Shown: piece by piece, positions 3,622 through 40,176 of the stretch
Layout of the letters: every line of letters begins with the position of its first letter
Position numbering within the stretch: position 1 is the first letter of the stretch
Assembly: GCA_021496925.1 (NCBI GenBank)
Contig: CP053915.1
Span: 2,537,260-2,601,259 of the forward strand
Origin: Acidovorax sp. YS12
GTDB lineage: Bacteria; Pseudomonadota; Gammaproteobacteria; Burkholderiales; Burkholderiaceae_C
Reading direction: 5' to 3'
DNA: 64,000 nucleotides
The notes under the pieces: generated by a model
What the model was told of the DNA's origin: nothing
Database searches by the model: none
Seen by the model: the letters and a program-made list of their open reading frames with translations, nothing else
Translations under genes and position numbers: made by a program

Positions 3622-4557
3622 ATGGCAGAAAAGAAGCTCCAGCCCATCATCATCAAGCGCGTCAAGAAAACCGCGCATGCCGCGCATGGCGGGGCCTGGA
3701 AGATCGCCTACGCCGACTTCGTCACTGCGATGATGGCCTTCTTCCTGCTCATGTGGCTGCTGGGCTCCACGGCCAAGGGCGACCTGCAGGGCATCGCGGC
3801 CTACTTCGCCTCGCCGCTCAAGGTGGCGATGGCCGGCGGCGACGGCGCGGGCAACAGTTCCAGCGTGATCCCCGGCGGCGGCACGGATCTGTCCAAGGTG
3901 CACGGCCAGGTGCGCCGCTCCGACTCCCCGGACGACACCAACCGCCGCATGGACCTGAGTTCGCGCGCCGAACGCGCGCGCCAGGACGCGGCGCGCATCC
4001 GCGCGCTGCACGCCAAGATCGACGCGATGATCACGGAGAACGCCAAGCTCAACGAGTACCGCTCGCAGATCCGCATCGACGTGACGCCCGACGGCCTGCA
4101 GATCCAGATCGTCGACGACCAGAACCGTCCCATGTTCGACAGCGGCAGCGCCCTGGTGAAACCCTACATGCGCGACATCCTGGGCGCCATCGGTTCGGCC
4201 CTGGGCGGGGTGGAAAACCGCGTGAGCCTGGCCGGCCACACCGACGCCACGCCCTACGGCAACGGCGAGCGCGGCTACAGCAACTGGGAGCTTTCTGCCG
4301 ACCGGGCCAATGCCTCGCGCCGCGAGCTGGTGGCCGCCGGCATGCCCGACGCCAAGCTGGCCCGCGTAGTGGGCCTGGCCGCCAGCGACCCGCTGGAGCC
4401 CACCAACCCGCGCGCGGCCATCAACCGGCGCATTACCATCACCATCCTGACCCGGGAGGCCGAGGAACGCCTGCTGGGCAAACAGCCCCGCGAAGTCCCG
4501 ATTGAACAATTGCTTCCTGAAAAGCAGGACAATCCCTCACCGGGTAAGCAGCCGTAA
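3622..4557 (+). CDS. motB: Flagellar motor protein MotB (OmpA-like peptidoglycan-binding domain)
   Basis: N-terminal TM '[20 protein letters not shown]'; C-terminal OmpA-like '[36 protein letters not shown]'. Confidence 0.9.
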
Positions 4558-4622
4558 CCACTTGTCACAACGGCCGCGCCCATGAGACCATTGACCATAA
4601 ATACCGACCGAAAGGGTCCCAC

Positions 4623-5006
4623 GTGGCAGACCTTCGTTTCTTGATCGTTGACGACTTCTCGACCATGCGGCGCATCGTCCGCAACCTGCTGAAGGAAAGC
4701 GGCTTCGCCGATGCCGACGAGGCAGAGGATGGCGTCGCCGCCTTGCAGAAACTGCGCAATGGCAAATTTGATTTCGTGGTAACGGACATCAACATGCCGA
4801 ACATGAATGGCTTCCAGCTGCTGGCCGAGATCAAGGGAGACGAGAAGCTCAAGCACCTTCCCGTGCTGATGGTCACGGCCGAGGCGCGCAAGGAAGACAT
4901 CGTGGCGGCCGCGCAGGGCGGTGCCGCCGGCTACATCGTCAAGCCCTTCACCAAGGCCACGCTGGAGGAGAAGGTGACCTTGATCCTCAAGAAGATGGGG
5001 CTATGA
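4623..5006 (+). CDS. cheY: Chemotaxis response regulator CheY (GTG start)
   Basis: Near-colinear with E. coli CheY ('[20 protein letters not shown]...[10 protein letters not shown]...VKPFT'). Confidence 0.9.
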
Positions 5007-28782: not shown

Positions 28783-29895
28783 CTATTTGGATATACCGCC
28801 GGGCGGCTGAAGCGCGGGCGGTGTGCAAGGGCGCACCAGCACCTGCATGGCACGCTCCACGGGCGATATCTCCACGCGCACCGGCAGGCACCGTGCAATG
28901 GTCTGCGCATTCGTCTCCGCATGGGGCGTGACCGCGCTGCAGGTGTAGCGCGCGGCCTGCCCGCTGCGCCACACCGCCAGGGCCAGCGGCAGCATCCACT
29001 GGTCGGCCAGGTGCGGGCCCAGGGCCCCCTGGCTGCGCCAGTAGGCGCGCACGTCGTCGCAGAGGCGGCGCGCCACCTGCTCGGACGACAGGCTGCGCTC
29101 GCCCAGCTGGCAGAACACCTCGGTCACGTGGGCGTGCGCCAGGATGGCCAGCAGGGCATTGCCCGGGCCTTCGTTCTGCCGCGCCACGGGCTGGCGCAGC
29201 TGGCCGGCCTCGAACGTCCAGCCCATGCGCTGGCCCAGCGCCTGCAGCTCGCGCGCGGCCACGCCTTTGGCGATACCCGGCGCCAGCACCTCGCCCCAGG
29301 CGCTCGCCAGCGGGCCGCGCTCCAGCAGGTCGAACGGCGCCAGCGGCTGCGCTGCAGGCGTGATGCGCGCCACCACCTCCCCGCCCCCGGCGGGAAAGAA
29401 GCCGCGGCGCTGCAACTGCAGGTCCAGCCCCGCGCCCAGGCGCCGCACCAGCGGTGCGAAGGCACGGTCGAGAAAGTCGAACGGCGGTGCCATGGGGTTG
29501 TGGGTGCCGCCGGCCAACTGCACTTCGCTCGCGCCATCGGCCAGCAGCAGCGCCGGCAGCACGGTCTGCAGCACCAGCATGCAGCTGCCGGCCGTGGCGA
29601 CCTGGAAGCGGTAGCGGCCCGCCCGCACCAAGCCCGGCGTGAACTGCAGCGCCTGCGCGCCCAGCGCCGCGCCTTCGGCCCGGCCATGGCACACCGCCTC
29701 GGCGGCCTGCACGCAGGCCAGATGCTGGCGCATCAGCCCCGGCTTGGGCCGCCCGGCACGAATGCGCGTGATGTGCAGCGGCTGCCCGGTGGCCAGCGAA
29801 AGGGCCAGGCCCGTGCGCAGGATCTGGCCGCCGCCTTCACCGGCGGCGCCATCAAGGGTGATGGGCGGCTGTTCTCCTGGTTCTTTGTTATGCAT
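28783..29895 (-). CDS. rtcA: RNA 3'-terminal phosphate cyclase RtcA
   Basis: Colinear with E. coli RtcA ('LDGAAGEGGGQILRTGLALS', catalytic His-containing 'RQHLACV', 'ATAGSCMLVLQTVLPAL'). Confidence 0.9.
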   Translation of the reverse strand: MHNKEPGEQPPITLDGAAGEGGGQILRTGLALSLATGQPLHITRIRAGRPKPGLMRQHLACVQAAEAVCHGRAEGAALGAQALQFTPGLVRAGRYRFQVATAGSCMLVLQTVLPALLLADGASEVQLAGGTHNPMAPPFDFLDRAFAPLVRRLGAGLDLQLQRRGFFPAGGGEVVARITPAAQPLAPFDLLERGPLASAWGEVLAPGIAKGVAARELQALGQRMGWTFEAGQLRQPVARQNEGPGNALLAILAHAHVTEVFCQLGERSLSSEQVARRLCDDVRAYWRSQGALGPHLADQWMLPLALAVWRSGQAARYTCSAVTPHAETNAQTIARCLPVRVEISPVERAMQVLVRPCTPPALQPPGGISK

Positions 29896-29967: not shown

Positions 29968-31188
29968 TCACCCCTTCACGCACACCACCTGCTTGAGCGT
30001 GTAGACCACTTCCACCAGGTCCTGCTGCGCGGCCATGACGGCGTCGATGTCCTTGTAGGCCATCGGAATCTCGTCGATCACGTCGGCATCCTTGCGGCAT
30101 TCCACGCCCTCGGTGGCGGCGATCTGGTCGGCCACGGTGAACAGCTTCTTGGCCTTGGTGCGGCTCATGGCGCGGCCCGCGCCGTGGCTGCAGCTGTTGA
30201 AGCTCTCGGGGTGGCCCTTGCCGCGCACGATGAAGCTCTTGGCACCCATGCTGCCGGGAATGATGCCCAGCTGGCCCTGCGCGGCGCTCACCGCGCCCTT
30301 GCGGGTCACGAACACCTCCTGCCCGAAATGCGTCTCGCGCTGCACGTAGTTGTGGTGGCAGTTCACCGCTTCCACGTGTGTCTCGAACGGCTTGGCGACA
30401 CACAAGCGCAGAGCGTTGATGACGCGCGTCATCATCACCTCGCGGTTGGCGGCGGCGAACTTCTGCGCCCAGCCCACGGCCTTGACGTAGTCGCCGAAGT
30501 AGCGCGCGCCTTCCTCGAAGTAGGCCAGGTCCTTGTCGGGCAGGTTGCGCTGGTGCAATTCCGCGTCCTTCTTCGCCAGTTCGATGAAGTGCGTGCCGAT
30601 GGCGTTGCCCACGCCGCGCGAGCCGGAGTGCAGCATGATCCACACGGCCTGGTGCTCATCCAGGCACACCTCGATGAAGTGGTTGCCGGTGCCCAGCGTG
30701 CCCAGGTGCTTGTAGTTGTTGGTGTTCTTGATGCGCGGATGCGCTTCGCAGATTTCCTCGAACTCCTGCACCAGCGCGGCCCAGGCGTGGTCGGTTTCGG
30801 CGGGCGGGGTTTCCCAGCTTCCCTTGTCGCGGCCATAGCGCTTGGGCGTCAGGCCCACGGGCACGGCGCGCTCGATGACGGCGCGCACGCCCGAGAGGTT
30901 GTCGGGCAGGTCGCTGGCGGTGAGCGTGGTCTTGCAGGCCATCATTCCGCAGCCCAGATCCACGCCGACCGCCGCCGGGATGATGGCCTTCAGCGTGGGC
31001 ACGACGGAGCCGATGGTGGCGCCGATGCCCAGGTGTACGTCGGGCATCACCGCCACGTGCTTGAAAACGATGGGCAGGCGGGCGATGTTGTGCAGTTGCT
31101 TGCGTGCGTCTTCCTCCACGGGCACGCCGTGGGTCCACATCTTGACGGGGACGCCGCTGGGGACTTCGTATTGCTGGTAGTTGGTCAT
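29968..31188 (-). CDS. rtcB: RNA-splicing ligase RtcB
   Basis: 407 aa from internal ATG (MTNYQQYEV...) with RBS; >50% identical-looking to E. coli RtcB across the full length ('HNYV', 'CSHGAGR', 'VKG' C-terminus). Confidence 0.92.
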   Translation of the reverse strand: MTNYQQYEVPSGVPVKMWTHGVPVEEDARKQLHNIARLPIVFKHVAVMPDVHLGIGATIGSVVPTLKAIIPAAVGVDLGCGMMACKTTLTASDLPDNLSGVRAVIERAVPVGLTPKRYGRDKGSWETPPAETDHAWAALVQEFEEICEAHPRIKNTNNYKHLGTLGTGNHFIEVCLDEHQAVWIMLHSGSRGVGNAIGTHFIELAKKDAELHQRNLPDKDLAYFEEGARYFGDYVKAVGWAQKFAAANREVMMTRVINALRLCVAKPFETHVEAVNCHHNYVQRETHFGQEVFVTRKGAVSAAQGQLGIIPGSMGAKSFIVRGKGHPESFNSCSHGAGRAMSRTKAKKLFTVADQIAATEGVECRKDADVIDEIPMAYKDIDAVMAAQQDLVEVVYTLKQVVCVKG

Positions 31189-31211
31189 TTTTGTTTCCTG
31201 TCTCTCGTTGC

Positions 31212-31409
31212 TCATGCAGCCGCCATGACATCGAAGGCGGCGGCGATGCGGTCGGTCAGCGGGTGGTATGTTTTGCCGCATTTGCGGCAGGCGGGGCGCC
31301 AATCGCAGGGGATTCCTTTATCGATCAGCTTCAACAGCTTGTCCGCCCATGCGGCTTTGGCTTGCGGATCGGTCACCGCAGCGTTCAATGGCGTGTCTTT
31401 CTTTTTCAT
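31212..31409 (-). CDS. Small (65 aa) Cys-rich, putative zinc-ribbon protein co-oriented 23 nt upstream of rtcB
   Basis: 'CDWRPACRKCGKTYH' (C-x5-C-x2-C-x4-H). Lys-rich N-terminus. Tight spacing between the SPFH gene and rtcB. Confidence 0.4.
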   Translation of the reverse strand: MKKKDTPLNAAVTDPQAKAAWADKLLKLIDKGIPCDWRPACRKCGKTYHPLTDRIAAAFDVMAAA

Positions 31410-31427: not shown

Positions 31428-32573
31428 TCAACGCATCTTCACGAGGCCGTTCAGCACCTGGTCCAGCCCGCCAAAGACGGAGATCTTGTCGATGCGCTCG
31501 GCCACGCGCTCCAGCGTTTCCAGTTCCTTCATGCGCAGGGCGACGGGGTTGTCCTCCATCACCTTGGCGGTGTTGAGCAGCGAGCGCGTGGCGGCGGTTT
31601 CCTCGCGGCGGCGGATCACGTTGGCCTGGGCCTGCTTCTCGGCCTGCACCACCTGGGCCAGGATGGCCTTCATGTCCCCGGGCAGCACGATGTCCTTCAC
31701 GCCCACGCTTTCCAGTTGCAGGCCGTAGGGCTGCAGCTTGGCGGCCATGTGCGCGGTCACGACGTCGTCGATCACCGTCTTGTTCTCCAGCAGCTCGTCC
31801 AGCGTGCGCGTACCCACGGCCGCGCGCAGCGCAAATTGCAGTTCGCGGTACAGGTGCTCCACGGGCTTTTGCAACTGACCGAAGGCGCGCAGCACGTCGG
31901 TGTAGCGCCAGGTGGCGCTCAGGTTCAGGCGCAGGGCCACCTTGTCGCGGGTCATGATGTCCTGGCCCGAGACTTCGACGGCCTGCAGGCGCAGGTCCAC
32001 CAGCTCCACGGCGATGACACGGCCGTATTTCCAGAAGGCATAGCTGCCAGCGGCCAGCAGGCGGTCCACCTTGCCGTCGATGGCGAGCAGCGCGCACTGG
32101 CCGTCGGGCACCTGCACTTGCAGCACGCCGTTCAGGCCCGCCACGGGGCGCTGGCGCAGTTGGGTTTGCGCCAGGCGCGCGGTCAGGCCGGCGGGCAGCT
32201 CGGCACTGGCGCGCAGGTCGATGACCTGCACGGCCACATCGACCAGACCCTTCCAATACAGGCGGCGGGTGCCGGGCGGCAGGATTTCGACCAGCACGCC
32301 GTTCTCGCTGCGCAGGCCCGCTTCGTGTTCGGCCAGGTTCACGGCGATGAACTCGGCGGCCACCACGGCAGGCTCGCGCGCCATCAGGTATTCGGCCAGG
32401 CCGTGGGTGAAGGCGGGCTGCTCCAGCGCGAAGGTCTCCACGCGCAATTTGTCGAGGCCCGCGAACAGCCAGTGCGTGCCGCTGTGCAGAACCCGGTCGA
32501 AATCGCCGTTGCGAAGCAGCAAGGCGCGTTCGTTCTTCTTGACGGTGATGCGTTGGAGGGTGTTGTTCAGCAT
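31428..32573 (-). CDS. SPFH/band-7 (stomatin/flotillin-like) family protein, apparently soluble
   Basis: C-terminal half is classic SPFH ('QDIMTRDKVALRLN...VGVKDIVLPGDMKAILAQVVQAEKQAQANVIRRREE'). N-terminus is also SPFH-like. No obvious TM segment. Confidence 0.75.
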   Translation of the reverse strand: MLNNTLQRITVKKNERALLLRNGDFDRVLHSGTHWLFAGLDKLRVETFALEQPAFTHGLAEYLMAREPAVVAAEFIAVNLAEHEAGLRSENGVLVEILPPGTRRLYWKGLVDVAVQVIDLRASAELPAGLTARLAQTQLRQRPVAGLNGVLQVQVPDGQCALLAIDGKVDRLLAAGSYAFWKYGRVIAVELVDLRLQAVEVSGQDIMTRDKVALRLNLSATWRYTDVLRAFGQLQKPVEHLYRELQFALRAAVGTRTLDELLENKTVIDDVVTAHMAAKLQPYGLQLESVGVKDIVLPGDMKAILAQVVQAEKQAQANVIRRREETAATRSLLNTAKVMEDNPVALRMKELETLERVAERIDKISVFGGLDQVLNGLVKMR

Positions 32574-32803
32574 TTTTCTCTTCCTTCTTCTCTGTCGTCA
32601 CAGGGTGCCGTTACAGCGGCGGCGGGGAGCCAGGGGACGCGGCCTCGGGCCGTGCAGTGCGCCGGGGTGTGGCTGGCTGCGGGCGCGGGCTGCGCCGGGT
32701 GCTGGCGCAAACCGCCGCCGGCTGACGGGGTGCAGGCTTGGGCTTGCGCCTTGGCCCGTGCCCCGCGTTCGGCGGTTCTTTCAACAACCGGCCTTGCGGC
32801 CGG

Positions 32804-32877
32804 ATCAATGGACGGGATTCGAACCCGCGACAGATCTCTTATGAGGAGATTGCTCTACCAAACTGAGCTACCAGTGG
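32804..32877 (-). tRNA. tRNA-Met(CAT)-like element with two acceptor-stem mismatches (pseudo-tRNA or tRNA-mimic ncRNA)
   Basis: Minus strand reads CCACTGG-TA-GCTC-AGTTTGGTA-GAGC-A-ATCTC-CTCATAA-GAGAT-CTGTC-GCGGG-TTCGAAT-CCCGT-CCATTGA-T. D, anticodon and T arms are perfect; 1-72 and 4-69 are unpaired; no encoded CCA. A GC hairpin (CCGGCCGCAAGGCCGG) follows. Confidence 0.5.
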
Positions 32878-32935
32878 CGGCACGCCTGGAGTCGAACCAG
32901 ACACGCCCTTGCGGGTTGGTCACCACGACCGTGCC
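32875..32935 (-). ncRNA. tRNA-like minihelix (acceptor stem plus T-arm plus CCA, no D/anticodon arms), fused head-to-tail to the tRNA-Met-like element
   Basis: GGCACGG...TCTGG-TTCGACT-CCAGG-CGTGCC-G-CCA. The encoded CCA overlaps the 5' end of the downstream tRNA-like element. Confidence 0.35.
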
Positions 32936-33074
32936 AGTACCCGGCGCTTGCGGCGTGCGGCATGCAGGGAATCGACAAGGCGCGAAGGCCCCGGACTCCC
33001 GGCACCGGCAGGGCGGACATGCGTCCAAACCCTGGCCTGTGAGCGTTCGGCGCTTGCGTCGGGTACCTTGTCTA

Positions 33075-33091
33075 TTGCCAGATGCGTGCCA
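33075..33091 (-). promoter_or_regulatory. Candidate sigma-54 promoter (TGGCACG-N4-TGGCA) reading toward the tRNA-like leader, SPFH, rtcB and rtcA
   Basis: Minus strand TGGCACGCATCTGGCA; -24 GG and -12 GC are correctly spaced. RtcR is a sigma-54 activator. Confidence 0.45.
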
Positions 33092-33211
33092 GCCTGGGTG
33101 GAATTGCGCTAACCATTTGCCACCAAAGGGGAAAACCGGATTCATCGGTCATCGGTGCGATTGCTGATTGCCAGTATTGCTAGACTGTTGGCTAGTTATC
33201 TAGCTGAAAAC

Positions 33212-34834
33212 ATGCACAAGAAAAAAGTGGTCATCGGCTTCCTCGGCACGCAGCTCGACTCGGGCCGGGGCGCGGGCCGCTGGCAAAAGTGGCGGCCTAC
33301 CGTCTCGCTGGTGCAGCACCCGGACATGGTGATCGACCGGCTGGAACTGCTCTACACAACCCCGCACAAGGATCTGGCCGCGCTGGTGCGCGCCGACATC
33401 GCCACCACCTCGCCCGAGACTTCGGTCAACCTCGTGGAGATGCCCACCGCCGATCCGTGGGACTTCGGCGAGGTCTATGCGCGCCTGTTCGACTGGGCGC
33501 AGGCCTACCGCTTCGACCCGGAGCGCGAGGACTACTGGACGCACATCACCACCGGAACGCACGTGGCGCAGATCTGCCTGTTCCTGCTGGTCGAGTCGCG
33601 CCGCATTCCGGGGGTGCTGGTGCAAACCTCTCCCCCGAAGCGCCAGCGCAGCGGCGCGCCGGGCACCTACACGCTGATCGACCTGGACCTGTCGCGCTAC
33701 GACGTGATCGCCCAGCGCTTCGGCGCCGAGCAGCGCGACGCGGTGCAGTTCCTCAAGAGCGGCATCGCCACGCGCAACGCGCGCTTCAACGCGCTGATCG
33801 ACGAGGTGGAGCGCGTGGCAGTGCGCTCGCGCGCGCCCATCCTGTTCACCGGGCCCACGGGCGCGGGCAAATCGCACCTGGCGCGGCGCATGTACGCGTT
33901 GAAGAAGGCGCGCCACCAGGTGCAAGGCCCGTTCGTCGAAGTGAACTGCGCCACCTTGCGCGGCGATGGCGCGGCCTCCACCCTGTTCGGCCACAAGAAG
34001 GGCGCCTTCACCGGCGCGGCCGCAGACCGGCCGGGCCTGCTGCGCGCCGCGCACCAGGGCGTGCTGTTTCTCGACGAAATCGGCGAGCTGGGCCTGGACG
34101 AGCAGGCCATGCTGCTCAAGGCCGTGGAGGAAAAGCGCTTCTACCCCCTGGGCAGCGACCGGGAGGTGGAAAGCGACTTCCAGCTGGTGGCCGGCACCAA
34201 CCGCGACCTGCGGGCCGAGGTGGCGGCGGGGCGCTTCCGCGAAGACCTGTTCGCGCGCATCAACCTCTGGAGCTACGTGCTGCCCGGCCTGGCGCAGCGG
34301 CCCGAAGACATCGCCCCCAACGTGGACCACCTGCTGGCGCAGGCGGGCCATGCGCTGGGCCGCGGCGTGCGCTTTTCCAGCGAGGCACGGGCGGCGTACC
34401 TGCGCTACGCCCAGTCGCCCGAGGCGCCGTGGGCGGGCAACTTCCGCGACCTGTCGGCCAGCGTGACGCGCCTGGCCACGCTGGCGGACAACGGGCGCAT
34501 CGGCCTGCCCTTGGTGGACGCGGAGCTGCAGCGGCTGCGCTGGCAATGGGAGCGGCTCGGGAACGCGCCGGCAATGGACGCGCAGGCCGGCGGCGTCGAT
34601 CTGGCGGCCTTGCTGGGCGGCGAGGCACTGCAGTCCATCGACCTGTTCGACCAATTGCAGTTGCGCGCGGTGCTGCAGGTGTGCCAGCGCGCGCGCACCC
34701 TGTCGGAAGCGGGGCGGATGCTGTTCCAGGCCTCGCGCGGGCAGCGCAGCGTGGTCAACGATGCCGACCGGCTGCGCAAATACCTGGCACGGTTCGGGCT
34801 GACGTGGGACCGGGTGCGCGAAGCTCTGGGATAA
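33212..34834 (+). CDS. rtcR: Sigma-54-dependent transcriptional activator RtcR (N-terminal CARF domain, AAA+ domain, HTH)
   Basis: N-terminus 'KKVVIGFLGTQLD' resembles E. coli RtcR. Walker A 'GPTGAGKS'; sigma54-interaction motif present. Confidence 0.9.
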   Translation: MHKKKVVIGFLGTQLDSGRGAGRWQKWRPTVSLVQHPDMVIDRLELLYTTPHKDLAALVRADIATTSPETSVNLVEMPTADPWDFGEVYARLFDWAQAYRFDPEREDYWTHITTGTHVAQICLFLLVESRRIPGVLVQTSPPKRQRSGAPGTYTLIDLDLSRYDVIAQRFGAEQRDAVQFLKSGIATRNARFNALIDEVERVAVRSRAPILFTGPTGAGKSHLARRMYALKKARHQVQGPFVEVNCATLRGDGAASTLFGHKKGAFTGAAADRPGLLRAAHQGVLFLDEIGELGLDEQAMLLKAVEEKRFYPLGSDREVESDFQLVAGTNRDLRAEVAAGRFREDLFARINLWSYVLPGLAQRPEDIAPNVDHLLAQAGHALGRGVRFSSEARAAYLRYAQSPEAPWAGNFRDLSASVTRLATLADNGRIGLPLVDAELQRLRWQWERLGNAPAMDAQAGGVDLAALLGGEALQSIDLFDQLQLRAVLQVCQRARTLSEAGRMLFQASRGQRSVVNDADRLRKYLARFGLTWDRVREALG

Positions 34835-34842
34835 TCGCCCCC

Positions 34843-35182
34843 GTGAAGCACGCCAGACCGCCGCTGGTGCTAGTGCCGAAAGGCCGCACTGGAGGAATGT
34901 CCGGACTGCACAGGACAGCGTAGCAGCTAACGGCTGCCCACCGTGAGGTGAGGATCAGAGCAACAGAGACGAGTCCCGGGGGAGTGCCGCAAGGTAGACC
35001 ACTGGGGGTGAAACGGGCAATCTCTACGCGCAGCAACACCAAGTAGGCCAGCGTTGACGTGGTTCCGCGGAGCTGGCGGGTAGGTGGCACCGAGCCGTGG
35101 TGGCGACACCCGGCCCAGAGTAATGGCGGTCACGTGCGGGCAACCGCATGCACAGAATCCGGCTTATCGGCGCGCTTCACAC
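34843..35182 (+). ncRNA. rnpB: RNase P RNA (bacterial type A), 8 nt downstream of the rtcR stop
   Basis: P4 strands 'GGAGGAATGTCCGGAC' and 'CACAGAATCCGGCTTATCGG'. P1 pairing GTGAAGCACGCC / GGCGCGCTTCAC. 'GGTGAAACGGG' and 'GAGTAATGGCGGTCACG' are conserved modules. Confidence 0.85.
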
Positions 35183-38519: not shown

Positions 38520-40176
38520 TGCCGGGCTCCAGCATGCGGATGCGCTCCACGTGCGCCAGCAGCGAGCGCTGCGCCACCGGCCACAGGCGCGGCGGCACGT
38601 CGGCGTAGGCGTGCTCGACCCACTGCTCCACCGTGCCCTCGGGCAGCGCCTGCATGGCGGCGATGACCCTGGCCTCGCGCGCCAGGCGGTGGGCCTTGAG
38701 CTGCGCGATGGTGGCGCGTGCCGTGCCCAGCACGTAGCCGTGCGCGGGCAGGATGAATTCGACGCCGTGCGCGGCGCACAGCGCGTCGAGCCGGTCGAGC
38801 GCGTCCAGGTAATCCGCCATATTGCCGTCGGGCGGGTCGATCACCGTGGTGCTGCCGTTGAGGATGTGGTCGCCCGAGAACAGCAGCGCATCCTCGACCA
38901 GCAGCAGGCACAGGTGGTTGGCCGCGTGGCCGGGCGTGTGCACCACCTGCAGGGTATGGGTGATTTCACCCTCCAGGCCTTTGCCAGCAAGCGTGAGCAG
39001 CTCCCCATCTTGTAGCGCCCGCTCGGGCGTGAACTGGGCCGCGGCGCGCGCCGTGGGGGCCGAGGGCAGGCCCAGGATAGGCGGCGCGGCGCGCCCAGCC
39101 TGCACGCACAACTGCTGCAGTGGCCAGGCGCCGGGCGAGTGGTCGGCGTGCGAGTGCGTGCACACGATCATGCGGATGTCGCCGCCCGCGGCGCGCCACA
39201 GGCGCTGCAGGTGCTCCAGGTCCTCGGGGCCGGGGTCGATGGCGATGTAGCCCGTGGCCGGGTCGCCCACCAGATAGCTGTTGGTGCCGGGGCCGGTCAT
39301 CACGCCCGGGTTGGGGGCGGTGAGGCGCTGCAGGTTCTTGCGCAGCGCCACGGAGCGCTCGCTCTGCCACTCCAGCGGGTGCACGATCTGCCCGTCGGGG
39401 CAGACCATGGCCAGCTCGCCGAACTCGGGCTCGTGCTCCATGTGGCGCGATTCCTTGCCGTGGCGCAGCCCGGCGCGCGGGCAGCTCACCCACAGCGGCG
39501 CCTCGCCCGCCACGGCGGCCAGCAGCGCGCCGGTGTGGGCGTAGGCCGCCAGGCGCTCCAGCGTGCGGATGGTGGGGTAGATCATGAAGAACTGCCCGGC
39601 GGCGTGGCGCGCCAGCGCATCGGCCGGGCGCACCCACACGGGCTCGAACTGCTCGGCCTCGTCGGCCACGGGCTCCTGGCCGGGCGGCATGCGCGCCACC
39701 AGGAAGGGCACGGCGAAGCGCTTGGGCAGGTCGCGGTCGGCCGTCCAGTGCGCCAGCAGGTACACGGCGTCGGCCGCCAGGCGCAGGCCGCGCGCCGCCA
39801 CCTGCGCGGCGAAGGGGCCGCGGCGGTCGAGCGCGGCGATGTCGGCCGCGCCGGCCCAGCGGCCATCGGCATGGCGCGCCAGCAGGATGCCCAGTTCCTC
39901 GAAGCTCTCGCGGATGGCGGCGATGGCCTCGGTCAGGTGCCGCTCGCCCTGCGCCGGGCGGCGGTCGGCCAGGGCGTGGGCGGCGCTGTCCTGCGCGTCG
40001 ATGCCGCCGCCGGGGAACACGTAGGCGCCGGGGGCGAAGCTGGCCTGGGCGCTGCGGCGCGTCATCAGCACTTCGAGCGCGCCGTCGGCCCCATCGCGCA
40101 GCAGCAGCACGGTGGCGGCCTCGAGCGGCCGGGCGGGCTGGCGCGCGGGGTGCAGGTATTGGTTGGTACGGGCCAT
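38512..40176 (-). CDS. NUDIX hydrolase fused to an MBL-fold metallo-hydrolase
   Basis: N-terminal Nudix box 'GGGIDAQDSAAHALADRRPAQGERHLTEAIAAIRESFEELG'. C-terminal 'CTHSHADH' MBL motif. The two halves are continuous in frame. Confidence 0.7.
   Translation of the reverse strand: MARTNQYLHPARQPARPLEAATVLLLRDGADGALEVLMTRRSAQASFAPGAYVFPGGGIDAQDSAAHALADRRPAQGERHLTEAIAAIRESFEELGILLARHADGRWAGAADIAALDRRGPFAAQVAARGLRLAADAVYLLAHWTADRDLPKRFAVPFLVARMPPGQEPVADEAEQFEPVWVRPADALARHAAGQFFMIYPTIRTLERLAAYAHTGALLAAVAGEAPLWVSCPRAGLRHGKESRHMEHEPEFGELAMVCPDGQIVHPLEWQSERSVALRKNLQRLTAPNPGVMTGPGTNSYLVGDPATGYIAIDPGPEDLEHLQRLWRAAGGDIRMIVCTHSHADHSPGAWPLQQLCVQAGRAAPPILGLPSAPTARAAAQFTPERALQDGELLTLAGKGLEGEITHTLQVVHTPGHAANHLCLLLVEDALLFSGDHILNGSTTVIDPPDGNMADYLDALDRLDALCAAHGVEFILPAHGYVLGTARATIAQLKAHRLAREARVIAAMQALPEGTVEQWVEHAYADVPPRLWPVAQRSLLAHVERIRMLEPGND

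Follow-up and report, generated by a model that had tools for sequence, protein, structure and literature searches.

Organisation of the rtc locus

RtcB/RtcA repair operons are widespread, and their bacterial cofactors and substrates are poorly understood. We analysed a 64,000-nucleotide (nt) stretch of the genome of Acidovorax sp. YS12 (contig CP053915.1, positions 2,537,260 to 2,601,259, forward strand), referred to here as the window and numbered from its first letter, which contains an rtcBA operon preceded by a long structured leader with two tRNA-like elements in tandem. The genes and the promoter region of the locus are the following.

33212-34834, plus strand: rtcR, encoding a CARF domain and a sigma-54 AAA+ activator, divergent from the operon
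33092-33211, no strand assigned: interval separating the rtcR start from the promoter, with CTAG-rich repeats, the presumed RtcR upstream activating sequence
33076-33091, minus strand: sigma-54 -24/-12 promoter TGGCACGCATCTGGCA, with a predicted transcription start near 33065-33063
31428-32573, minus strand: Band-7/SPFH (slipin-type) protein of 381 aa (Pfam Band_7, 1.4e-30)
31212-31409, minus strand: Cys-containing protein of 65 aa, taken from the list of open reading frames (ORFs)
29968-31215, minus strand: rtcB, RNA ligase (Pfam RtcB, 3.9e-127)
28783-29895, minus strand: rtcA, RNA 3'-phosphate cyclase (Pfam RTC, 5.2e-74, together with RTC_insert)

The regulator matched the Pfam families RtcR (3.9e-83) and Sigma54_activat (1.6e-49), as well as the NCBIfam equivalog RNA_repair_RtcR, at 822.8 bits against a cutoff of 650. 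With a divergent rtcR, a -24/-12 promoter, rtcB and rtcA all in place, the locus is an RtcR-regulated rtcBA operon. No rsr gene (Ro60/TROVE) was present between the promoter and rtcA, and there is no room for one, because the leader and the genes for the Band-7 protein, the 65-aa protein, RtcB and RtcA occupy almost the whole of this span. A preliminary description of the locus, made from the sequence alone, had listed the same order of genes and noted the lack of rsr, and the Pfam and NCBIfam searches and the ORF list agree with it.

The promoter motif TGGCACGCATCTGGCA was the sole match to TGGCAC-N5-TKGCW in the 64-kb window, where 0.24 matches were expected by chance, and the motif is kept at the same relative position in many relatives that carry a linked rtcR. 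The near-consensus sigma-54 promoter that had been proposed on the minus strand at ~33075-33091 was thus found at 33091-33076, unique in the window and conserved. The region between this promoter and rtcR (33092-33211) holds the CTAG-rich repeats CTAGATAACTAG ... TCTAGCAATA, and similar motifs occur in the alignment of relatives; these repeats are candidate RtcR binding sites.

Two tRNA-like elements in tandem

The leader that separates the promoter from the Band-7 gene is made up of five segments.

32934-33068, minus strand: 5' domain, a branched fold of ~135 nt (model R2, 136.7 bits)
32875-32936, minus strand: tRNA-like element 1, a reduced cloverleaf (minimum-energy fold)
32802-32877, minus strand: tRNA-like element 2, of the b7a-tRNA type discussed below (called as tRNA-Met(CAT) by ARAGORN)
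32733-32803, minus strand: linker of small hairpins (fold z = -1.96; alignment and RNAalifold of relatives)
32603-32732, minus strand: 3' domain, one long irregular hairpin or rod (model R3, 108.1 bits)

Element 1 was predicted to fold into an acceptor stem of 6-7 bp, a D-like arm of 3-4 bp, a GCAA hairpin and a canonical T arm (GGUUCGACUCC), and to end in GCCA. It had been described as an acceptor/T-arm minihelix with CCA at 32875-32935; the CCA and the T arm stand, and the element as a whole (32936-32875) is fuller than a minihelix, with a reduced cloverleaf as its predicted fold. Its terminal CCA provides the first 3 nt of element 2, so that the two elements overlap by three bases, in keeping with the head-to-tail fusion suggested earlier.

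Element 2 scored 53.5 bits with the Rfam tRNA model at 32804-32877 (gathering score 29). It has canonical D and T arms and a 5-bp 'anticodon' stem closed by the loop CUCAUAA. In its acceptor stem, five of the seven positions are paired, with mismatches at C1xA72 and C4xU69, and no 3' CCA follows the stem, the sequence at that point being U-CCGGCC... The preliminary description of a tRNA-Met(CAT)-like element with two acceptor mismatches and no CCA was therefore accurate by ARAGORN, by the Rfam tRNA model and by inspection of the stem. It had also proposed comparison with the YrlA family, and here the match, at 26.0 bits, fell below the gathering score, as is detailed in the last section.

A covariance model of the tandem pair (R1) matched the window at 32805-32942 with 138.4 bits. 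When folded as single sequences, the two elements showed unremarkable energies (z = -0.9 and -0.2), as did a 283-nt stretch folded in the same way. Support for the tRNA-like elements is for this reason comparative. No Rfam riboswitch, T-box or other known cis-regulatory family was matched in the leader under permissive search conditions, and no terminator-like site was present either in the leader or between the leader and the Band-7 gene.

Conservation of the tandem pair with Band-7 and RtcB

Relatives were collected by a protein-guided scan of GTDB species genomes, which yielded 523 confirmed Band-7 relatives, and 80 loci with 62-89% identity were kept for comparison. These came from Comamonadaceae, other Burkholderiales, Burkholderia, Ralstonia, Formivibrio and Pseudomonas. 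Mapping of genes by tblastn divided them into two architectures. Class A resembles the window, with a divergent rtcR, an intergenic region of ~650-720 nt, followed by Band-7, rtcB and, in most cases, rtcA. Class B comprises ~35 loci with no rtcR within 5 kb, in which tRNA arrays and an HNH gene lie upstream of Band-7 and rtcB.

The arrays of class B contain 5-16 tRNA genes on the same strand, ~1-3 kb upstream of the Band-7 gene, and each is followed by a conserved ORF of ~200 aa for an HNH endonuclease, directly before the unit of leader, Band-7 and rtcB. One such ORF, at 3814-4425 of locus L017, matched Pfam HNH_5 (4e-16). Loci with both array and HNH gene include L017, L021, L024, L025, L026, L031, L041, L043, L048, L060 and L063.

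When the 700 nt that precede Band-7 were aligned with MAFFT for 20 close relatives, conservation extended throughout the stretch from the promoter to the start codon. RNAalifold analysis of 19 sequences predicted two cloverleaf-type units in series, with compensatory changes in 14 of 30 pairs. Across the whole set, R1 detected a full-length tandem pair directly upstream of Band-7 in 70 of the 80 loci, in both classes, and in the resulting alignment of 71 sequences 97.5% of the cells were paired, compared with 74.2% after shuffling and 37-54% with slid partners. Compensatory (double) changes were seen in 22 of the 30 pairs of the model. All six acceptor pairs and all three D-like pairs of element 1 covaried, and in element 2 covariation was found in the anticodon, T and acceptor stems.

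The tRNA elbow consensus was kept in the T loops and in the D arm of element 2, and NCCA followed the stem of element 1 in most loci. RNase P and the CCA-adding enzyme recognise such features, and the retention of the elbow consensus and NCCA favours processing of the leader by the tRNA machinery.

The leader was always located directly upstream of Band-7 and on the same strand. It is linked strictly to Band-7 and RtcB, irrespective of rtcR: as it also occurs where rtcR is missing, these two are its constant partners. The synteny comparison that had been suggested for Comamonadaceae thus extends to other lineages, with the arrangement of tRNA-like pair, Band-7 and rtcB recurring in the 70 loci.

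Departures from the common form were also seen. Variovorax loci (L066, L067, L071, L073 and L074; ~4530-4670) retain the 5' domain, but their element 2 is reduced and their element 1 has no T arm. In Pseudomonas L079 (3720-3866), element 1 is a full-size tRNA-like unit, and ARAGORN calls two overlapping tRNAs there. From these two forms, element 1 seems to be a degenerating duplicate. The copy in the window is itself atypical, in that it is without one linker hairpin and the apical hairpin of the rod, and carries a 7-nt CAU loop unlike those of its nearest relatives.

The anticodon loop of element 2

The part of element 2 that would identify a tRNA, its anticodon, is not conserved. In class A, a GNRA or UUCG tetraloop closes the anticodon stem in ~30 of 36 rtcR-linked loci, and in class B a 7-nt loop is present in 28 of 35 loci. 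The frame of the loop is well kept among the 34 elements that have 7 nt (C32 in 28, U33 in 30, A37 in 24 and A38 in 27). The middle triplet takes 17 different values, of which CAT is the commonest (8 of 34). Because the triplet varies to this extent, and because tetraloops are found elsewhere, element 2 is not a decoding tRNA-Met; the acceptor stem with five of seven pairs, the missing CCA and the lack of a conserved anticodon at the orthologous position all depart from what such a tRNA requires.

Three closely related loci (L031, L035 and L043) have the element 2 loops CTTGTAA, CTAGTAA and CTCGTAA, which differ at the first anticodon position. Between L031 and L035 there is one further difference only in the aligned module of ~135 nt. 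This position may be quick to change, on what is anecdotal evidence.

The domains that flank the tRNA-like elements

The 5' domain is closed by a helix in which the predicted 5' end of the transcript pairs with the bases just before element 1. This helix starts at about the predicted transcription start and stops 1-3 nt short of the element 1 acceptor stem, and because it stops there, a cut by RNase P would yield an RNA with paired ends. Full-length copies of the domain were detected by R2 in 77 of the 80 loci. In the R2 alignment 91.9% of the cells were paired, compared with 71.0% after shuffling and 35-44% in the slid controls, and 39 of the 45 pairs showed compensatory changes. The fold of the domain in the window had z = -2.08.

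The hairpins of the linker include CCGGCC-GCAA-GGCCGG (32803-32788), which is the GC hairpin that had been pointed out after the tRNA-like pair, and CCGC-CGAAC-GCGG. A further hairpin, GGUC-GAAA-GACC, is found in relatives and is missing from the window.

The 3' domain varies from 130 to 165 nt among the loci, contains highly conserved internal loops, and is the most conserved part of the leader in sequence. It stops ~30 nt upstream of the Band-7 start codon. Matches to R3 were found in 38 other loci; 92.5% of the cells in the alignment were paired, compared with 79.7% after shuffling and 29-49% in the slid controls, and compensatory changes were present in 37 of the 47 pairs. Its fold in the window had z = -3.28. 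An apical hairpin of ~33 nt on the rod is present in relatives and missing from the window.

Permissive searches with the window leader and its relatives matched neither flanking domain to any Rfam 15 family and returned noise only. Nucleotide profiles (nhmmer) of both flanks also matched class B loci. These alignments and predicted folds describe the whole leader as a structured RNA of ~490 nt with several conserved domains, of which the tRNA-like elements form the middle part only.

A small ORF within the 3' domain (32611-32808) was considered and rejected, as it showed no third-position pattern, its insertions and deletions were not in threes, and the pairs in this region covary. A DNA pattern taken from the 5' domain, CCGGTGC-N25-55-GCATGCCGC, gave >120 matches in viral contigs; these look like chance and the candidate was dropped. 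Among the matches listed, R2 matched none of the 80 viral-contig loci with this pattern, and one relative only of the Band-7 protein was found in viral contigs, at a contig end.

The Band-7 protein and neighbouring features

The Band-7 protein is 100% identical to one from Acidovorax sp. YS12, and no membrane helix was evident in it. Its AlphaFold model was of low confidence, with a predicted local distance difference test (pLDDT) score of 61; it aligned with stomatin over ~230 columns and with the major vault protein over 420-490 columns, both of which are cage-forming proteins. The model suggests a layout of N-terminal beta repeats, an SPFH domain and a long helix, as in the vault protein, which we take as a lead only.

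The 65-aa protein encoded after Band-7 matched no Pfam or NCBIfam family, and homologues were seen in a few relatives only (L007, L008, L009 and L038). We set the start of rtcB at the ATG at 31215, in a frame that is open from 31302. The stop of the 65-aa ORF overlaps this likely start in the sequence ATGA (31212-31215, minus strand), an arrangement that points to coupled translation.

The RNase P RNA gene, rnpB (34845-35182, plus strand; Rfam 201 bits), begins 10 nt past the rtcR stop codon. Its proximity had been raised as a possible functional link with the leader. The adjacency recurs only in some Acidovorax relatives (L002, L007 and L008, with the gene ~2 kb farther away in L010) and was not found outside them; we therefore rejected the link and regard the adjacency as local synteny. 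ARAGORN also called an 86-nt 'tRNA-Ala(CGC)' at 38643-38728 (plus strand), which was not found by the Rfam tRNA model at the gathering score. This call lies across long ORFs and is probably spurious.

A model for the leader RNA and its alternatives

The reading that we favour, and to which we give about an even chance, is that the leader of the RtcR/sigma-54 band7-(p65)-rtcB-rtcA operon is the source of processed tRNA-mimic RNAs that partner Band-7 and RtcB. Damaged tRNA would accumulate and RtcR would activate the sigma-54 promoter; RtcR is activated by 5' tRNA halves that end in a 2',3'-cyclic phosphate (PMC7790460). The leader would then fold, and RNase P would cut the tRNA-like elements at their 5' ends, with 3' trimming to follow; the cleavage of M. 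smegmatis YrlA by RNase P and its receipt of CCA are a precedent (PMC4201824), and element 1 already has NCCA. Stable small RNAs would be freed in this way, namely the 5' domain with its paired ends, element 1 and element 2. The tRNA mimics, together with a cytosolic SPFH/Band-7 oligomer, would form a ribonucleoprotein (RNP) that acts as a cofactor or scaffold for tRNA repair by RtcB (and RtcA), by analogy with the role proposed for YrlA with Ro60 in rsr-yrlBA-rtcBA operons.

A more elaborate version of this model, which we consider speculative and rather unlikely, would make the whole ~490-nt leader an undescribed multi-domain non-coding RNA that, once processed, assembles with a soluble, vault- or stomatin-like Band-7 cage and presents or protects broken tRNAs for RtcB, with the loop of element 2 tuned to the tRNA-cleaving toxins of each lineage.

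Several points weigh against the favoured model, and the doubt lies mostly in the step to a trans-acting RNP. Transcription from the promoter, processing, binding to Band-7 or RtcB, and any effect on repair are steps that we infer for Acidovorax. Element 2 has a weak acceptor stem in this genus (3-5 of 7 pairs), which leaves cleavage by RNase P uncertain at that site. The 3' domain abuts the ribosome-binding site, a position that would also suit a cis-regulatory role, and the vault-like layout of the Band-7 protein comes from a model of low confidence (pLDDT 61). The fractions of paired cells were obtained from covariance-model alignments, which are biased towards the modelled structure. Finally, PA4581.1, the RNA annotated at the corresponding place in Pseudomonas aeruginosa, did not change in level when Rtc proteins were induced (PMC13637947), and because of this, expression solely from the RtcR promoter fits poorly.

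The leader could instead act in cis only, as a 5' untranslated region in which the tRNA-like elements serve as 'punctuation' for RNase P and the 3' rod controls the stability or translation of the band7-rtcBA mRNA, with no RNP formed in trans. We consider this a possible but less likely explanation. It draws on the 3' domain, which is so well conserved in sequence and ends so near the Band-7 start, and on the invariable placement of the leader upstream of Band-7 on the same strand with no terminator between them. Processing signals that resemble tRNA are also known, mascRNA being an example, and element 1 is weakly similar to it: the match to the Rfam model RF01684 reached 18.0 bits (E = 0.89), below the gathering score of 42.5. 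However, two elaborate mimics and a 135-nt domain with paired ends exceed the needs of a processing signal, and the D and T loops preserve their elbow nucleotides in the manner of RNAs bound as tRNA. The YrlA and YrlB RNAs, at the equivalent place in Salmonella-type operons, are trans-acting, and the Rfam search of the leader gave no riboswitch or T-box that would speak for regulation in cis. The preliminary description had offered another explanation, in which the leader is an RNA sensor, decoy or autoregulatory substrate of the RtcR system; as worked out here, it would bait anticodon nucleases, or release fragments with cyclic phosphates that bind the CARF domain of RtcR, and so form a self-sensing or feedback loop. 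The response of RtcR to cyclic-phosphate-ended tRNA halves agrees with this, as does the proper 7-nt CAU loop of element 2 in the window, and a loop frame that is kept around 17 different 'anticodons' could reflect diversification against nucleases. Yet the usual cut of an anticodon nuclease is impossible in the tetraloops of most rtcR-linked loci, and 7-nt loops are concentrated in the loci without rtcR, the reverse of the pattern expected under this idea. The leader accompanies Band-7 and not rtcR, being present in ~35 loci with no rtcR within 5 kb, and the tRNA-like domain of Salmonella YrlA was uncleaved under inducing conditions (PMC7790460). The fit is poor, and we judge this account improbable.

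That the element is a tRNA-Met gene, intact or in decay, or what a mobile island has left of a tRNA integration site, we regard as most improbable. The calls by ARAGORN and the Rfam tRNA model would be explained by such a gene, and CAT is the triplet seen most often in 7-nt loops. The nearest relatives, however, have a tetraloop and not CAU at the orthologous position, so that no canonical tRNA-Met was seen there. The two acceptor mismatches and the missing CCA also count against a tRNA gene, as do the compensatory changes and the synteny that is fixed across Comamonadaceae, other Burkholderiales, Formivibrio and Pseudomonas. The integration-site remnant was rejected, as no second copy of the 3' end of element 2 was found in the window at up to 3 mismatches, and tRNA 3'-end duplications flanking the locus, which had been named as a sign of an integrated island, were accordingly not present in the window. 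With the anticodon unconserved, and with the leader travelling with Band-7 where rtcR is absent, a role in decoding or as an RtcR sensor is disfavoured. The leader as a source of tRNA mimics that partner Band-7 and RtcB remains the account that we prefer, and it defines an anatomy for probing: tandem mimics, two further covarying domains, an anticodon arm that can vary or be dispensed with, and a linkage to Band-7 rather than to RtcR.

Comparison with known systems

Burroughs & Aravind gave the name b7a-tRNA in 2016 (NAR 44:8525) to a tRNA-like RNA encoded beside Band-7 in the RtcB operons of certain bacteria, as related in the discussion of Wang et al. (bioRxiv 10.1101/312249). There it is treated as a predicted non-coding RNA, strongly tRNA-like and without experimental validation, for which a functional redundancy with YrlA was proposed. 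The locus in the window agrees with this description. The tRNA-like element 2 (32802-32877) lies directly beside the Band-7 gene (31428-32573) in an operon with rtcB (29968-31215), it resembles an authentic tRNA by the Rfam score and by ARAGORN, and, as is often the case for b7a-tRNA, a divergent rtcR is present. The suggestion that the locus is an undescribed variant of the Rtc system thus has to be modified: by that account, the window holds a member of a predicted and uncharacterised kind, and the RNA of P. aeruginosa has been annotated (PMC13637947). The preprint describes b7a-tRNA as a single RNA, whereas that of the window is the second of a tandem pair, is flanked by structured domains and has an imperfect acceptor stem. 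The tandem pair, the flanking domains, an anticodon loop that varies or is absent, and the class without rtcR that has tRNA arrays and HNH genes may exceed the description as it is given there. No Rfam family exists for b7a-tRNA, and no experimental test of the Band-7/tRNA-like version of the Rtc system was found in the literature searched.

In P. aeruginosa, the SPFH gene PA4582 (PA14_60630) lies within the rtc locus (PMC13086221). PA4581.1, annotated as 'tRNA-Arg4' in strain PAO1, lies between rtcR (PA4581) and PA4582-PA4585, is without CCA and has atypical tRNA features; its RNA was detected by quantitative reverse-transcription PCR at about half the level of ordinary tRNAs (PMC13637947). 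The position, the order of rtcR, tRNA-like element, SPFH, rtcB and rtcA, and the missing CCA are as in the window. PA4581.1 differs in its 'anticodon', and it has been discussed as an odd tRNA-Arg and not as a tRNA mimic. The Pseudomonas loci of our set (L079 and L080) have elements of the tetraloop type. The Band-7/tRNA-like version of the system occurs in P. aeruginosa and in the Burkholderia cepacia complex, where the RNA is mis-annotated as an ordinary tRNA.

Cyanobacterial tRNA L-arrays linked to HNH and rtcB (PMC8421152) recall the trio of array, HNH and rtcB in class B. That work makes no mention of a Band-7 gene or a tRNA-like leader, and the window is without an array.

A further parallel is with the rsr-yrlBA-rtcBA operons, in which YrlA and YrlB are encoded between the promoter and rtcBA and, in the Salmonella type, act in trans (PMC7790460; bioRxiv 10.1101/312249). 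The layout and the covariation uphold the earlier proposal that the window has a tRNA-mimic module in the place of these Y RNAs, without rsr. Like the leader, YrlA has tRNA-like T and D arms and is encoded between an RtcR/sigma-54 promoter and rtcBA (PMC4201824, PMC7790460), and it is a likely substrate of RNase P; in M. smegmatis it is cleaved by RNase P and CCA is added (PMC4201824). YrlA, which acts with Ro60/Rsr, differs in having one permuted tRNA-like domain, whereas the window has two cloverleaf-type units in series and no adjacent rsr gene. The Rfam YrlA model (RF02553) gave a partial match at 32852-32904 (minus strand) of 26.0 bits, against a gathering score of 69, that covers model positions 28-81 only; a similar partial match, at 24 bits, was seen at 2044-2095 of locus L003. 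In the window this match runs over the T arm of element 1 followed by the D arm of element 2; the order of T before D, which is typical of YrlA, arises here from the tandem junction. The enclosing stem of YrlA, its Ro-binding helix, has no counterpart around this junction, the long helix of the leader closing the 5' domain and ending before element 1. The junction may nevertheless be a hint of an evolutionary relation to YrlA, or of the origin of YrlA. If the partnership between the leader RNA and Band-7 is true, it would represent a second, independent combination of a protein ring or cage with a tRNA mimic in RNA repair, beside that of Ro60 and Y RNA.

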